Part shown: positions 14,720 to 27,766 of the stretch, piece by piece
How positions within the stretch are numbered: the first letter of the stretch is position 1
Layout: each line of letters begins with the position of its first letter
Assembly: GCA_963788655.1 (NCBI GenBank)
Contig: CAWBHS010000088.1
Coordinates: 1-64,000, forward strand
From: an uncultured Verrucomicrobiae bacterium
Lineage (GTDB): Bacteria; Verrucomicrobiota; Verrucomicrobiia; Limisphaerales; JAFGQR01
DNA: 64,000 nucleotides
Direction of reading: 5' to 3'
The notes under the pieces: model-generated
Databases searched by the model: none
What the model was told of the DNA's origin: nothing
Seen by the model: only the letters and a program-made list of their open reading frames with translations
Translations under genes and position numbers: made by a program

Positions 14720-16888
14720 TCATCGTCGTTTTTTCTTTTGCGGCACCACCGGCACGGGAGCTTTGGGAACCAACGGTGCGTTCTTGTCGGCGGCGCGCGT
14801 TAACTTCGTTTGCACAACGGAGAGTAAGTTTTGCACAGTCCAATACAGCGTCAAGCCTGCCGAGAAATTGTACAAGATCACCAGGAACATCAACGGCATG
14901 TAACGCATGACCTTCTGCTGCATGGGATCCACCCCAGGCGAAGCCGGCGTCAGCCGGGCTTGCCAGAGCATGGTGGCTCCCATGATGAGCGGCAGCAGGT
15001 TGAACGGCACATTGAGGCCCGGGATGATGAACAACGTGTCCGGCTGAGACAGATCGGAAATCCACAGCCAACTGGCCCCGCGCAATTCGATGGCGGTGCG
15101 GATCATGGTGTAAAACCCAAAGAAAATCGGCATCTGCACCATCACCGGGAGGCAGCCCGCAGCGGGATTGATTTTGTGTTCCTTGTAAAACTCCCACATC
15201 TTGCGCTGCATTTTTTGCGGGTCATCTTTGAATTTCTCCTGGAGCGCTTTGATTTGCGGTTGCAGCGCCGACATGCGTTTCATGGACCGCGTGCTGATAT
15301 TGGTCAGCGGCCAGAAGATCCCCTTGATGATGATGGTGATGGTGATGATGGCCCAGCCGTAAGAAAACCCCATTGCGTTCAGGCCGTTCATCGACACCAG
15401 CAGCAATTGAGCGAACCAGCCGAAGAACCCAAAACTCATGATCTTGTCCAGGTTGTTCTTCAACCGCGCGCCCAGCCGGGACAAGAGTTTGTATTCTTTG
15501 GGACCGGCGTAGATCAAGAAGGAGTGTGCCACCGAACCCTGCGGTTGCAGCACGGTAGCCGGATAAACCATGCTCGTCTGGTAACCCATTGGGCTCGGCT
15601 TGAGGTCGCGAGTATAGGCCTGCTCCAAGATCAGCCGATTTAGCCGCACCACGTCCTCGGGCCACTGGGTTTGATCCACCAGCCGCCGAACCTGTTCCGG
15701 CAGCGGATGGCGCAAAAAGTAATCCTGATTGGCCTGGTAAATCGATGGTCCGTGGAGAACGTCATTCAAATCGGCCACCAGCGCTTGTTGCATCGGTTCA
15801 GACAGCGACCGGAAATCCACCACATTCTTCAGTTGCGCCCGCGTGTCAGCGGAAAGATGCTGGTACACATATTGGGACAGGCTGTCGGTCGAACTCTGCA
15901 ACGCGAACGCCAAGCCGCCCAGGTTGCTGAAATCCTCCGCCGCAAACAACCAATCCCGCCCGTTGAGCGACCGTTCGGTAGCAGCCAGCGCGTTGGTGGG
16001 TTCGCGCAGTGGGGGCAGATAGACCTCCCGGACGATGACTTCCGTGGCCGGCATGTTGGTGGGGGCGATTGCGGCCAGGGCAAAGAACTGATTGTGGACG
16101 GCCACCCATTCGACATTGTCCTTGCCGCCCGTAAACTGGTGCCGCGGCGTGCCTGGGAAACAACCCAAAGTGCGGTTGGCAAACCAGCCGGCCTGGACTT
16201 GATGGGCCGCCTTGCCATCGTACCAAAACGTTCCCAGCAACCGCAGGTCGTCGGCCAGCCCCATTGGTGTGGCGGTCCCGGTCACCCATTGCTGCGGGGG
16301 AATCGTCATCGGCTGGGAGGAACGGTTCTCCAGGCGGGTCACCGCATCCACCAGGTAGTTGGTCAGCAAATGAAATTCCTTCACCAACGTCAGGCCATTG
16401 GTCAGAGCCTTCTCCGCGCGCACGACGTTCCCCTGGTGACTCAACTGGAACACGTCATTGCCCACGAAGGTCTGGCTGTCGGCCAACGCCATTACGGGCA
16501 ATGGGGCCAAAGTATTGAGACTGGCCCAATTCGTGGCATGGGTAAGGGTGCGCGCCCGTTTGGAAACGCGCGCCGGATACTTCATCAGTTCAACCAGTTT
16601 GAGGCCGCCGCCGTGGGAAGTGAACGTGTAACGGGCCAGATCATTTGTCAGGACCAGCAGTTGTTCCGGGGGCGCCACTTCCTTGGGTGTGACTACGGGA
16701 GCCGGACGATTGGTCGGAATGTTACTGATTTCCGCGATGTTTGTGCCGGCGCTGGTCACCACCTCATTGGTGCCGGACGGTTGGACGACGGGCAGAGGCG
16801 CGGGCGGGTAGAGCTTCTTCATGAGCGCCGGCCACATCAGCAGCGCCATGAAGGAAAGAATGAGAATGATAATGCCTTTACGATCCAT
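14720..16888 (-). CDS. yidC: Membrane protein insertase YidC with a ~120-aa insertion
   Basis: [45 protein letters not shown]. Confidence 0.96.
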
Positions 16889-17240
16889 GCTCGCAGGTCT
16901 TCAGAGAAGTAATTGTCGAATGAAGTTCCGGGTGCCCGGACGAAGCCAGGCCGCCGGACGCACGTGCCGCCGCCTGGTCAGGTGGCAGCGATTGGTGAAC
17001 CGGCGGAACCGGGTCATGTCCGCACCCGCCCCAAGGCTGACACCGCAGCAACCGGCGCAACGCCAGCCAACTACCGCGCCGCGCGCCATGCCGTTGGATT
17101 GCTTCCAACGCGTATTGGGAACAGGTGGGGGTGTAACGACAGCCCATGCCAAACGGAACGGTGAGCGCCGCCAGCACAGGGGAGAGCGTGACGCGGTAAA
17201 TGCGCAGCAGCAAAACCAGGATTTGTTGGGCGAAATTCAA
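16878..17240 (-). CDS. yidD: Membrane protein insertion efficiency factor
   Basis: [17 protein letters not shown]...[21 protein letters not shown] start inferred. Confidence 0.92.
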
Positions 17241-17323
17241 GTTCGATGAGGACGAGGCTTGCCGGATTGCCAGGGAGCGCCAGTGGTTGTCGCAATGGAA
17301 TAGCTCATGGGCGGTCTTGTGTC

Positions 17324-17701
17324 CTATTCCGGCGTCGCCAGCAAACGAGCCCGTTGGATCGCTTCGAGAAAGTCCTTTTCGACCGCGGCGAATTTCCGGC
17401 CGACGATCGACGAGCGCGCCACCAGCACCAAGTCCAGTGGCTGCTGGATTTGATCCTGGTGCAGCCGGTAACTCTCCCGCAACAAGCGCCGCGCCCGGTT
17501 GCGCACCACCGCATTGCCCAGCTTGCGTCCGGTGACCACCCCCAAACGAGAGGGTGAGCCGGCCGGCAGCAGCAGCCAATTGGCAATCAGGCAGCCGTGG
17601 ACCATTCGCCGGCCCTGCGTCTTGACGCGCGAAAAATCGCGGCCATGCTTCAGATGGCGCCGGCGCGGCAGTCCGCGTCTAGCTGGCGGTGCGGTGGCCA
17701 T
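17324..17701 (-). CDS. rnpA: Ribonuclease P protein component
   Basis: [25 protein letters not shown]. Confidence 0.95.
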
Positions 17702-24729: not shown

Positions 24730-25832
24730 TTAGAATCGTGGCGCCGAGCAGTTCAAACCGTGCGCCTGGGCAACCGCCGGGCAGGTGAGCTGGCCGGCCA
24801 TCACGTTGATGCCTCCCACCAGCGCGGGATGGCGCTGGCAGGCCTCGGCCAGTCCGTGATCCGCCAGTTCTTCGAGGTAACGGTAGGTCACATTGGTCAG
24901 GGCCTGCGTGGCGGTGCGCGCGTAGGCGGCTGGCATGTTGGCCACGCAGTAGTGCGTCACGCCTTCCTCGACAAATACCGGGTCATGATGCGTGGTGGGG
25001 CGCGAAGTTTCGGCGCAGCCGCCCTGGTCAATGGCAATGTCCACCAGCACACTGCCCGGCCGCATGCACCGCACCATTTCGCGGTTGATCAGCCGGGGCG
25101 CCTTGGCCCCGGGCACCAGCACCGCGCCCACCAGCAGATCCACGTGCGGCAACAATTCCATCAAGTGCGCCGGACTGGAGTACAGCGTGTGCGCGGTGTG
25201 CAGGGTGATGTCCAGGAACCGCATCCGTTCGAGATCGACTTCCAGAATCGTCACGTCGGCGCCCAAGCCGGTGGCCATGCGGGCGGCATTCACGCCCGGC
25301 CACGCCGCCGCCGAGCACGACGACGCGGCCCGGCAACACGCCCGGCACGCCGCCCAGCAATACGCCGCTGCCGCCGTAATGCTTGGCCAGGAAATAGCCG
25401 CCCACCAGCACGGACATGCGCCCGGCGATTTCGCTCATCGGCTCGAGCAACGGCAGATGCCGGTTGACCTCGATGGTTTCGTACGCCAGGCCGGTCACGC
25501 CGGATTGCAGGAGCGCCTCCGTCAACGCACGGTTTGCCGCCAGGTGCAGATAGGTGAATAGAAGCTGGCCCGGCGCGCAACAGGGGGAATTCGCTCGGTT
25601 GCGGTTCCTTGACCTTGACGATCAGTTCGGCCCGCTCGAACACGGCGGCGTGTTCAGCCACGAGCGTGGCGCCGGCCTTTTCGTATTCAGCATCGGGGTA
25701 GCCCGCGCCGGCGCCGGCGTCGCGTTCGACCAACACTTGGTGGCCGCGTTGCACAAGTTGATACGCCGCCGAGGGCAACAGGGCCACGCGGTATTCCTGT
25801 GGTTTAATTTCTTTGGGGACGCCGATAATCAT
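24730..25832 (-). CDS. ald: Alanine dehydrogenase, two apparent indels (~25575, ~25295)
   Basis: [45 protein letters not shown] and HYCVANMP. Confidence 0.92.
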
Positions 25833-25987: not shown

Positions 25988-27766
25988 TCATTCATGGGAT
26001 TGAGGTTTTCGCCCGGAAGCCACCAGTTGTTGCATGGTTACAGCCTCCGAGACTTCTTTTTCCACCTGGTAAAACTTCTCGAATTCCTGGCGCACCTGTT
26101 CGCGGGAGGAATCGCTGCTGGTGGCCAGTTCTTCCCCCGGCCCAATCCGTAACGCCTCCAGTACATCGTAGGCGGTGATTTTATCCAGGGGCCGGGCGGG
26201 CTGATACCCCGTGTCGCCATTCAACACCTCGACCACCAGGTTCGCTTGCTGGAGCGTTTGCAACAGCTCATTCACCAGCCGGAGCGGGACTTCCAACGTC
26301 GTCGCCAAGTCGGTGCTGCCAGGCGGTTTTTGGCCCTGCGAAAAATATTCCGCCACGCGGGCCATCAACCGCAAGGCAACGAATTCGCGTCCCCGCTGGT
26401 TGACTTGTTCGCTTTGTTTTTCCTGGGCATCCGATTCGCGGTTTTGGAAGGAATACGCCACTTGGGCCCCCAGTAACAGGATCAGCCACGAAAAATAAAG
26501 TCCCACGAGGAACAACGGCAGAATGCCCAAGCTGCCATAGATGGTGGTGTAGGTCACCACGCGCGAAACGTAGATCACACTGAACAGGTTGTTGAGTTGC
26601 CAAAGGCAGCCGCCGACCGCTCCGCCCACCAGCGCGGCCCGCCACTTCACCCGTGTATTCGGCATGAACTGGTACAAGAGGCCAAACGCCAGGGTTAAGA
26701 TCGCGAACGGTAGCAATTGCAGGATGAGGGGGATCTCCTCGATCAATTTAGCCGTGGTGGTGAAATACGGCCCGGAACTCAATCCCCACACCAAGGCCAG
26801 AACCAGCGGTCCCAGGGTAATGACGGCCCAATACTGGATGATGCTCGCCACCCAACCGCGACCACGATGCACCCCCCAGATGTCATTGAACGCCGCCTCG
26901 ATGGTCCGCAACAGGCCGATGGCCACAAAGACCAGCGCAATGGTGCTGGTAATCCCCAACGAACCGCTGCGGATGTTGCTGATAAAACCCGTGATCTTCT
27001 CGACCACCTGCTGGCGGCGGTCCACGGGGCTCTTCTCCAGCGCGTCGGGATACTTGTCCTCCAGCAACAAACGGTTCAACTGCTGGAGGCGTTCGTCTTT
27101 CGGTGATTGCTGGATCAGTTGGCGGGTCCGTGCTTTCAGGTTCACTCCGTCGAACCGCTGCGGATCGTAAAGCGCCGGGCCTTGGATCACCTGGTTCAGG
27201 GCCTGGACCAGGGCGATGTCGAATTGCTCCTCGTTGGTGGTCGCCAGGCCAGTTCGGGTCAGCCACGGCTGCAGAACGGCCCACGCTTGATTCGTCACAA
27301 ACCGTGACACCGGATCCGCCCCAACCCGCAACTTTTCGAACAGCGCCGGAGCATTCTTGATTTCGTTCGTGGCTAGCAACGGTGAACTGGCGGCCGTCGT
27401 TTCTCCCGGCTTGCTTTCGAGGTTCAGCGCCGGGGCCACGTAGGCGACCAGCTTGTTGATGGCTTCCTCGATGGGTTTCTGTCCCTCGCTCTTGAGCAGA
27501 CTCGAAGAAACGCTGATGGCGATGGCCAGCATCGGCACCAGGGCCAGCAAGGTGGTATAAGCCAGCGCCGACGCCCGATCCAGGCAGCGGTTGCGCACGA
27601 AACTCTTCACCACCACCACGCAGAAATGAGCGAGACGTTGCGTGCGCGAATGCGGCACACCGGGCTTCTGGATGAGATTTTCGGACAGGAGCGCCTCGGC
27701 TTTTTGCCGAAGCGCTTTGATTTTCGGCTTGAGCTGCTTGAGTTTCCCAAAGGTTTTGCCGGCCAT
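25988..27766 (-). CDS. YihY/BrkB (UPF0761) membrane protein with C-terminal Rrf2-like HTH and a ~118-aa insertion
   Basis: ASALAYTTLLALVP, IEAAFNDIW, PNTRVKWRAALVG and IYGSLG.LP.FL..LY.SW.I.LLGA; C-terminal winged helix. Confidence 0.92.
   Translation of the reverse strand: MAGKTFGKLKQLKPKIKALRQKAEALLSENLIQKPGVPHSRTQRLAHFCVVVVKSFVRNRCLDRASALAYTTLLALVPMLAIAISVSSSLLKSEGQKPIEEAINKLVAYVAPALNLESKPGETTAASSPLLATNEIKNAPALFEKLRVGADPVSRFVTNQAWAVLQPWLTRTGLATTNEEQFDIALVQALNQVIQGPALYDPQRFDGVNLKARTRQLIQQSPKDERLQQLNRLLLEDKYPDALEKSPVDRRQQVVEKITGFISNIRSGSLGITSTIALVFVAIGLLRTIEAAFNDIWGVHRGRGWVASIIQYWAVITLGPLVLALVWGLSSGPYFTTTAKLIEEIPLILQLLPFAILTLAFGLLYQFMPNTRVKWRAALVGGAVGGCLWQLNNLFSVIYVSRVVTYTTIYGSLGILPLFLVGLYFSWLILLLGAQVAYSFQNRESDAQEKQSEQVNQRGREFVALRLMARVAEYFSQGQKPPGSTDLATTLEVPLRLVNELLQTLQQANLVVEVLNGDTGYQPARPLDKITAYDVLEALRIGPGEELATSSDSSREQVRQEFEKFYQVEKEVSEAVTMQQLVASGRKPQSHE

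Follow-up and report, generated by a model that had tools for sequence, protein, structure and literature searches.

A five-helix module nested in YihY/BrkB and YidC of a verrucomicrobial genome belongs to a large family without a name

Two module-bearing genes in the window

The stretch of DNA analyzed here, 64,000 nucleotides of contig CAWBHS010000088.1 from an uncultured Verrucomicrobiae bacterium (the window), encodes a YihY/BrkB-family inner-membrane protein and the insertase YidC, and both proteins carry an in-frame copy of the same module. Here, we identify this module as a real domain of ~115–120 residues that belongs to a large family without a name. We demonstrate that it is inserted in numerous unrelated proteins on either side of the membrane, that it is under purifying selection that is weaker than that on its hosts, and that it is dispensable for most YihY orthologs.

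The yihY gene (25988..27766; minus strand, as are all features of the window given below) is an open reading frame (ORF) of 592 aa whose product has a C-terminal Rrf2-like domain. The protein lies above the curated cut-offs of both Pfam PF03631 (BrkB; E 4.8e-52, 177.6 bits, cut-off 33.7) and NCBIfam TIGR00765 (135.7 bits, cut-off 73.15), with the match split by the module. Because the BrkB match comes as two stretches, the best of which pairs aa 252–443 with profile positions 54–258, the extra segment breaks into the family model after the first transmembrane segment (TM1). The five-helix module spans aa 128–247 (27026..27385; profile match aa 128–245) in the TM1–TM2 loop, referred to as site A. 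TM1 (aa 73–91; 27494..27550; hydropathy peak 2.25) lies just upstream of the module-bearing loop, and at TM2 (aa 268–286; 26909..26965; hydropathy peak 2.07) the family sequence resumes (GSLGITSTIALVFVAIGLL), the BrkB match itself resuming at aa 252. A first-pass annotation had described an insert after TM1 of a 592-aa YihY at 27026–27379, i.e., aa 130–247 (118 residues), and the peptide it quoted is located there; the ORF, the coordinates and the split BrkB match bear this out. A second position, site B in the TM3–TM4 loop, is empty in the window protein (~aa 341–343; 26738..26746; the insertion columns map to P0001 body positions 214–221).

Escherichia coli YihY spans the inner membrane with six TM segments and has its N terminus in the cytoplasm. 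The window protein has six hydropathy peaks, one of them weak (1.15); its N-terminal 72 aa hold 15 Lys and Arg residues versus 3 Asp and Glu residues, and loops 2 and 4 have a net positive charge. Because of the hydropathy peaks and the charge distribution, loops 1 and 3, and thus sites A and B, are predicted to face the periplasm. The C terminus is placed in the cytoplasm because of the Rrf2-like winged-helix domain there (aa 464–582; 26021..26377; Pfam PF02082, E 8.7e-8, 32.8 bits, cut-off 30). According to precomputed Pfam annotation, the fusion to this Rrf2/IscR-like winged-helix tail is common to most of the 120 listed YihY orthologs.

The second host is the 722-aa YidC insertase (14720..16888; Pfam 60KD_IMP, E 7.7e-59), in which the module occupies aa 314–433 (15590..15949; profile match 2e-37) and is nested in the P1 domain. 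Pfam YidC_periplas and TIGR03593 (yidC_nterm) are each split into two stretches around YidC aa 278–423, and the absence of a continuous match to either model indicates that this copy is not native to canonical P1. The solved YidC chains in the PDB, including that of E. coli, align with the window protein only from aa 445 on, and an attempt to map the insertion onto E. coli P1 gave no alignment of the P1 region. The P1 domain of YidC is periplasmic. Thus, both window copies probably face the periplasm, as the first-pass annotation had proposed; this assignment is based on the broken P1 models for YidC and on hydropathy and charge for YihY.

The two copies are homologous. BLASTP among the 38 ORFs of the window, a tiny database searched with composition statistics off, aligned YihY aa 96–260 with YidC aa 314–445 (38 of 132 positions identical, 29%; E 3e-10), while the next-best ORF reached E 0.21. 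By phmmer, the match had an independent E value of 7.5e-9. A profile of 28 module copies, to which both window copies belong, matched the six-frame translation of the window in two places only, YihY (4e-42) and YidC (2e-37), with the next-best match at E 6.9. All three methods, therefore, uphold the earlier suggestion that yihY holds a second copy of the inserted module. At the protein level, the copies are 29–31% identical, and they cover a 125-position profile (A1) over nearly its full length (positions 4–122 for YihY and 3–123 for YidC), including the motifs LN...(I/L)YDPQRF...RLNRLLLEDAYP, which are present in both. Independent pairwise matches link the module to 26 other proteins at E values of 1e-9 to 1e-34. 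Neither window copy is the nearest relative of the other, the mutual ranks being 157th and 98th of 318, and both have numerous closer relatives among modules from other host families.

AlphaFold2 models of both copies, run with the 14-row alignment underlying A1, are all-alpha and have an identical order of five main helices, in agreement with the first-pass expectation of related folds. The YihY copy was modeled with a mean predicted local distance difference test (pLDDT) score of 89.3 and a predicted TM-score (pTM) of 0.84, and the YidC copy with a pLDDT of 91.7 and a pTM of 0.86. The sole two beta-bridge residues of each model (positions 11 and 118 in YihY; 11 and 120 in YidC) sit near the two ends, suggesting that the N- and C-terminal ends of the module pair with each other side by side. 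Because its ends would lie adjacent, the module could hang off a surface loop and leave the host fold undisturbed. Among the 14 diverse copies aligned in A1, eight positions are invariant, L-N-R-L-x-L among them. Across 318 nonredundant modules, conservation is highest at hydrophobic residues, at probable helix caps by our interpretation, and at three near-invariant polar residues, N66 (90%), N106 (96%) and R107 (93%). Foldseek searches of the PDB with both models gave no match at E ≤1e-3 (best E 1.7–2.4; TM-score at most 0.30), and the sequence profile found only a chance match in the PDB (E 0.45). The ESM Atlas returned nothing usable for the YihY module and, for a consensus-like module, a single cluster of 56 aa, without a name, at 0.76, which is too low for a lead. 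By eye, the consensus looks internally duplicated, with '..ADPVSxFLxxxLSxxTRxxL' in one half and '..YDPQRFxxVxLSxETxxLL' in the other, the two halves having a DP...F...LS..T..L pattern in common.

A large family in unrelated hosts

In an exhaustive hmmsearch of 1.84 billion cluster representatives, the module profile matched 4,966 proteins at E ≤1e-3, 3,101 at E ≤1e-10 and 214 at E ≤1e-30. The hosts are 171–7,546 aa long and contain up to nine matched stretches per protein. The module corresponds to no family in Pfam or NCBIfam, and when 14 single members were scanned at E ≤10, no family was matched by more than one of them. DUF3349 (PF11829) was considered and rejected: a six-copy protein (P0027) reached only 26.7 bits against a cut-off of 28.3, none of the 14 single modules matched, and there was no sequence match in the PDB. 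Motif and keyword searches of the literature, which do not cover subscription journals, returned no description of the family.

Genomes were scanned with the pattern LNRLLL[EQA][DQE]A[YF]; 416 of the 459 stretches found were confirmed, and taxa were taken from the best 80 of the 416 loci. These are from Verrucomicrobiota (47), Planctomycetota (11), Acidobacteriota (10), Nitrospirota (2), Binatota (1) and Vulcanimicrobiota (1), with three lacking a taxon. Five more are metagenome-assembled genomes (MAGs) labeled Actinomycetota or Pseudomonadota, labels that we suspect reflect mis-binning. The family spans at least five phyla. Genes for FucP-like permeases of the major facilitator superfamily (MFS) that carry the module are 77–94% identical between MAGs labeled as different phyla or families (L004/L042, L006/L066, L018/L032 and L009/L012); the clashing labels include Limisphaerales versus 'Bifidobacteriaceae' and Thermoguttaceae versus 'Burkholderiaceae'. 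Either gene transfer or mis-binned contigs would account for this similarity.

Searches with the module region alone recovered the ~115-residue unit in LptC/LptD-like proteins, P-type Mg-ATPases, FucP-like MFS permeases, a DMT permease, an MscS channel, TatC and a Kelch protein. A named Pfam family was found in 22 of 65 short hosts, 31 of 50 mid-size hosts, 9 of 17 others and 67 of 76 locus hosts (76 of the 81 locus ORFs were scanned, the five longest being left out). Together with the earlier searches, these scans show that ~60 different, unrelated host families carry the module, almost always as an in-frame insertion, single or in tandem, inside or between host domains. In addition to BrkB and YidC_periplas, the Pfam models BPD_transp_2, Peptidase_A24, AI-2E, SSF, MMPL and OPT were reported in two stretches, and in thioredoxin P0169 the module lies within the fold, between the N- and C-terminal Pfam matches.

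The most frequent locus hosts are MFS proteins including POT (26 loci), P-type ATPases (8) and DUF1080 proteins (7). Membrane or exported hosts further include PTS EIIC, ABC exporters, MMPL, LptE, the SecDF P1 head, AI-2E, SSF, HtrA-like proteins, AhpC, cytochromes c, MurJ, OPT, HlyD, PorV and Wza-like proteins. With host compartments assigned from Pfam family names, cytoplasmic hosts are found as well: the ECF sigma-70 factor P0131 with the module between regions 2 and 4; the P-II protein P0086 with two separate insertions in two loops; the phage-type RNA ligase P0137; the Mob_Pre relaxases L073 and L078; the N6/MmeI-type methylase L028; and NACHT and AAA_16 STAND ATPases, KaiC-like ATPases, an SF1 helicase and TssG.

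Insertion sites, selection and recent copies

To follow the module within one host family, we analyzed 121 YihY proteins, i.e., the best 120 of 2,515 full-length matches at E ≤1e-30 plus L072; because the query holds the module, this selection favors insert-bearing forms. Of the 121, 65 (427–571 aa) lack the module, and these insert-less orthologs show a clean gap in the alignment. The module is at site A in five proteins (the query, P0175, P0176, P0177 and P0269) and at site B in 51. L072, from a Verrucomicrobia MAG, is a 593-aa YihY that has the same Rrf2-like tail and is 51% identical to the window protein over the host body, loop 1 is unbroken, and the module is in the later loop, at site B. 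On a tree of YihY bodies with the module excised, the three states require 6 changes versus a minimum possible 2; the window protein forms a group with P0176 and P0177, to which the insert-less P0178 is added as the next branch. Two independent gains of the module, one in each of two loops, are firm for the YihY family, and further gains or losses are likely. A separate ortholog, P0291, has another insertion of ~60–70 aa at site A that the module hidden Markov model does not match; it seems that loop 1 is generally permissive or that this is a decayed module copy.

Selection was estimated by the Nei–Gojobori method on host pairs among the loci, of which 130 of 281 had unsaturated synonymous divergence (dS); these pairs are not independent. 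The ratio of nonsynonymous to synonymous divergence (omega) had a median of 0.29 in the module (interquartile range 0.25–0.36; maximum 0.61) versus 0.21 in the host bodies and was higher in the module than in the body in 112 of the 130 pairs. The nonsynonymous divergence (dN) ratio of module to body had a median of 1.74. Among 15 disjoint pairs, module omega was 0.14–0.61. Because omega is below 1 but above that of the host bodies, the module is not neutral, yet it is less constrained than its hosts. The protein-level selection that the first-pass annotation had surmised is, therefore, evident for the family, with the caveat that these values come from other hosts and not from the window's own YihY copy.

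Module divergence soon loses information on time. Modules at site A are mutually 27–37% identical, whereas their host bodies are 48–64% identical. Among pairs at site B, the identity of the modules correlates with that of the hosts (r 0.76) and drops faster: mean module identity is 81% with host bodies 90–100% identical, 53% with bodies 80–90% identical and ~32–34%, a floor, with bodies 70% identical or below. This floor of ~32% is reached while host bodies are still 60–70% identical. Because it approximates the similarity of any two modules, the 31% identity of the YihY and YidC copies is uninformative on how long ago they separated.

We also compared 420 near-full-length modules in 310 hosts, in which unrelated hosts were defined as having at most one 5-mer in common outside the module. 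Of 786 module pairs at least 55% identical, 72 are in unrelated hosts. The most extreme case comprises five proteins, P0043, P0100, P0152, P0173 and P0166, in which the modules are 71–94% identical in the profile alignment (83–94% for the first four). By BLAST, the modules of this group are up to 95% identical and nothing else aligns; the similarity starts at '(G)SSLFSVGDFIDL' and stops at 'AYPLEIAKS', so that the borders are sharp. P0100 (1,471 aa) has a recent-type copy at aa 88–203, which is 92–95% identical to two P0043 copies, and an old-type copy at aa 613–733, which is 33% identical, suggesting that the same gene was invaded repeatedly. Tandem copies inside one protein are up to 89% identical (P0028). 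Thus, the module has occasionally been copied recently between unrelated genes. Among loci with DNA available, the nearest module in an unrelated host is at most 57% identical. Concerted evolution within a genome was considered separately and ruled out, as copies in the same genome are only 30–41% identical.

Possible spread and role of the module

We lean toward a scenario in which the module is a copy-and-paste passenger domain that can be inserted into loops and whose conserved residues mainly secure autonomous folding. In this scenario, the family would spread by repeated copy-and-paste of a coding cassette of ~354 nucleotides, and the survivors would be only those copies that landed in-frame in tolerant loops. 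The conserved residues would mainly keep the module self-folding, making it a tolerated passenger with a logic like that of translated Rickettsia palindromic elements (RPEs). In the window YihY, the module would decorate periplasmic loop 1 and be unneeded for the core function of the protein. Because nothing suggests splicing, the module presumably stays in the mature host protein.

Several observations weigh against this scenario. First, traces of mobility at the DNA level were not detected. As the first-pass annotation had stated, there is no DNA-level repeat between the two window copies: blastn gave no match at word size 11, and only chance 7–8-mers are in common. Terminal inverted repeats (TIRs) or target-site duplications (TSDs) at the two window copies were represented only by short, low-identity matches of a chance type. 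RNA folding of 36 modules showed no excess over 36 host-coding controls (median z −0.31 versus −0.47; p 0.48), and the guanine-plus-cytosine content of the module equals that of its hosts. Second, close copies in unrelated hosts are rare, with the nearest such copy at least 80% identical for 4 of 420 modules, at least 70% for 7 and at least 60% for 18, and copies in different genes of one genome, at 30–41% identity, are at background (median 38%). Third, only two insertion events, at two sites, are firmly shown in YihY, in a sample skewed to insert-bearing forms. In approximately unbiased (AU) tests, site-A holders as one clade were not rejected, albeit at a borderline p of 0.066, and site-B holders as one clade were only weakly rejected (p 0.026), with the L072 row being long-branched. 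Fourth, the 150 hosts listed are top scorers and biased to multi-copy proteins. Finally, an omega well below 1, the near-invariant N66, N106 and R107, and retention in MFS and P-type ATPase genes fit a real function equally well.

Such a function is the core of the main alternative, in which the module is an adaptor domain, acting by self-association, docking to a common partner or binding of a ligand or ion, that was recruited repeatedly by ordinary domain shuffling. We regard this as a serious possibility, if not the one we favor. It would account for purifying selection in every pair tested, for the three near-invariant polar residues, for the module's persistence in genes for MFS proteins and P-type ATPases in MAGs of several phyla and for tandem arrays with up to nine matched stretches per protein. 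Co-evolving pairs of homotypic adaptors, as in the adaptor domains of bacterial conflict systems, are near-identical copies in unrelated proteins, and the five-protein pattern described above would also be expected from such pairs. However, it is hard to picture a single partner or ligand for a module that occurs in periplasmic loops as well as in cytoplasmic hosts (sigma-70, P-II, RNA ligase, relaxase and NACHT proteins). Moreover, no signaling output domains are among the Pfam matches of the hosts, same-genome copies are no more alike than random pairs, 65 of 121 YihY orthologs do without the module, the module evolves faster than its hosts, and Foldseek found no fold relative of known binding function in the PDB.

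In a bolder version of the copy-and-paste scenario, which we consider possible but doubtful, a new type of mobile element, still active and present in multiple phyla, would have the module as its translated payload and amount to a "protein-domain transposon". Here, the ~354-nucleotide cassette would insert in-frame copies of itself into loops of arbitrary genes, with products on either side of the membrane, would persist by means of a self-folding domain with touching ends and would be moved by a putative trans-acting machinery, with no classical terminal repeats left. A tblastn search with P0164 gave no match among plasmids (PLSDB) or phages (INPHARED), databases that hold few genomes of the relevant phyla.

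The first-pass annotation had suggested that the module of YidC and YihY, facing the periplasm in both, could link envelope-biogenesis proteins. This part of its reading is not supported, and we consider it very unlikely. Both window copies are probably periplasmic, and many hosts are indeed part of the machinery for envelope biogenesis, including YidC, LptC, LptD, LptE, TatC, SecDF, MurJ and prepilin peptidase. By contrast, cytoplasmic hosts exist, and the ~60 host families are mostly transporters and enzymes unrelated to envelope biogenesis. The window copies are far from being nearest relatives, and their 31% identity is below the 38% median of another pair set. Most YihY orthologs examined have no insert or have it in the other loop, and a search with the YidC region gave 4 matches from 1,612 candidates, none of them another YidC. 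A predicted complex of the YihY and YidC copies, each with its alignment and run without controls, had an ipSAE interface score of 0.00 in both runs and favors neither side. That the two copies are a chance similarity between lineage-specific loop expansions with no discrete element, to which a pairwise identity of merely 29–31% might point, is refuted by the profile matches of 4e-42 and 2e-37, the thousands of family members, the invariant motifs in common and the same confidently predicted fold.

Comparison with known insertions sets the module apart. Inteins are selfish in-frame insertions, often in essential hosts and patchy among orthologs; they have the all-beta Hint fold, an N-terminal Cys or Ser and a C-terminal His-Asn followed by Cys, Ser or Thr. 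The module resembles them in being protein coding, nested in-frame in its host and patchily present among orthologs. Unlike inteins, it is all-alpha in the models, lacks a Hint fold and has no conserved Cys, Ser, Thr or His-Asn at its borders, and with no splice residues at the borders in either the 14 or the 318 aligned modules, an intein is ruled out. The Death-like and effector-associated adaptors of bacterial conflict systems, small and all-alpha, have been shuffled into many architectures, those of NACHT/STAND ATPases among them, and sit at protein ends rather than in periplasmic transporter loops. The module is likewise small and all-alpha, and its hosts include NACHT/STAND ATPases; in contrast to these adaptors, it lies inside periplasmic transporter loops, and neither a Death fold nor any other PDB entry was matched by Foldseek at E ≤1e-3.

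In RNA polymerase, the BEAN/HABAS insertions are described as discrete domains in loops of a conserved host with a polyphyletic distribution across lineages (PMC11515920). They occur in one host protein, whereas the module is in ~60 unrelated hosts. RPEs are elements of ~150 bp in ten families, with 44 integrations in R. conorii, nearly half of them in ORFs, according to the available portion of PMC10969869. [quoted passage not shown] Unlike RPEs, the module is ~354 nucleotides long, forms a confidently predicted five-helix domain, occurs in at least five phyla and is conserved as protein. Also, RPEs and MITEs are palindromic or TIR-bearing repeats, usually of <200 bp, whereas the module copies examined have no palindrome, TIR, TSD or DNA similarity. 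For these copies, a translated repeat of the RPE/MITE type was rejected on the lack of TIRs and TSDs, the lack of excess folding and the dissimilarity of the window copies as DNA. Altogether, translated RPEs and inteins are closest to the module in logic, and the module has the defining features of neither.

If the module is indeed a copy-and-paste passenger, then one small domain, in several thousand sequence clusters, has been pasted into loops of essential machines (YidC, TatC, SecDF, Lpt and MurJ), transporters, enzymes and defense-type ATPases across several abundant phyla of soil and freshwater. This would amount to a natural, large-scale domain-insertion experiment that marks loops tolerant of ~120 extra residues in ~60 families, and the module would be a ready-made insertable scaffold for protein engineering. 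It would also call for an explanation of how in-frame copying of a coding cassette proceeds with none of the usual hallmarks of transposons. For annotation, the module accounts for many over-long orthologs in Verrucomicrobiota and Planctomycetota and merits a family model.

Two neighboring genes of the window deserve comment. The ORF upstream of yidC (16878–17579) matches the YidD domain only at aa 119–191 of 233; its mechanically assigned start is probably too far upstream, or the ORF overlaps rnpA. Adjoining yihY, an alanine dehydrogenase gene (24730–25832) is broken over three reading frames, with AlaDh_PNT_N positions 1–94 in the ORF at 25290–25832 and AlaDh_PNT_C positions 1–44 and 41–213 in the ORFs at 25028–25525 and 24730–25293, respectively. 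The split corresponds to two frameshifts, as in a pseudogene or from assembly indels.

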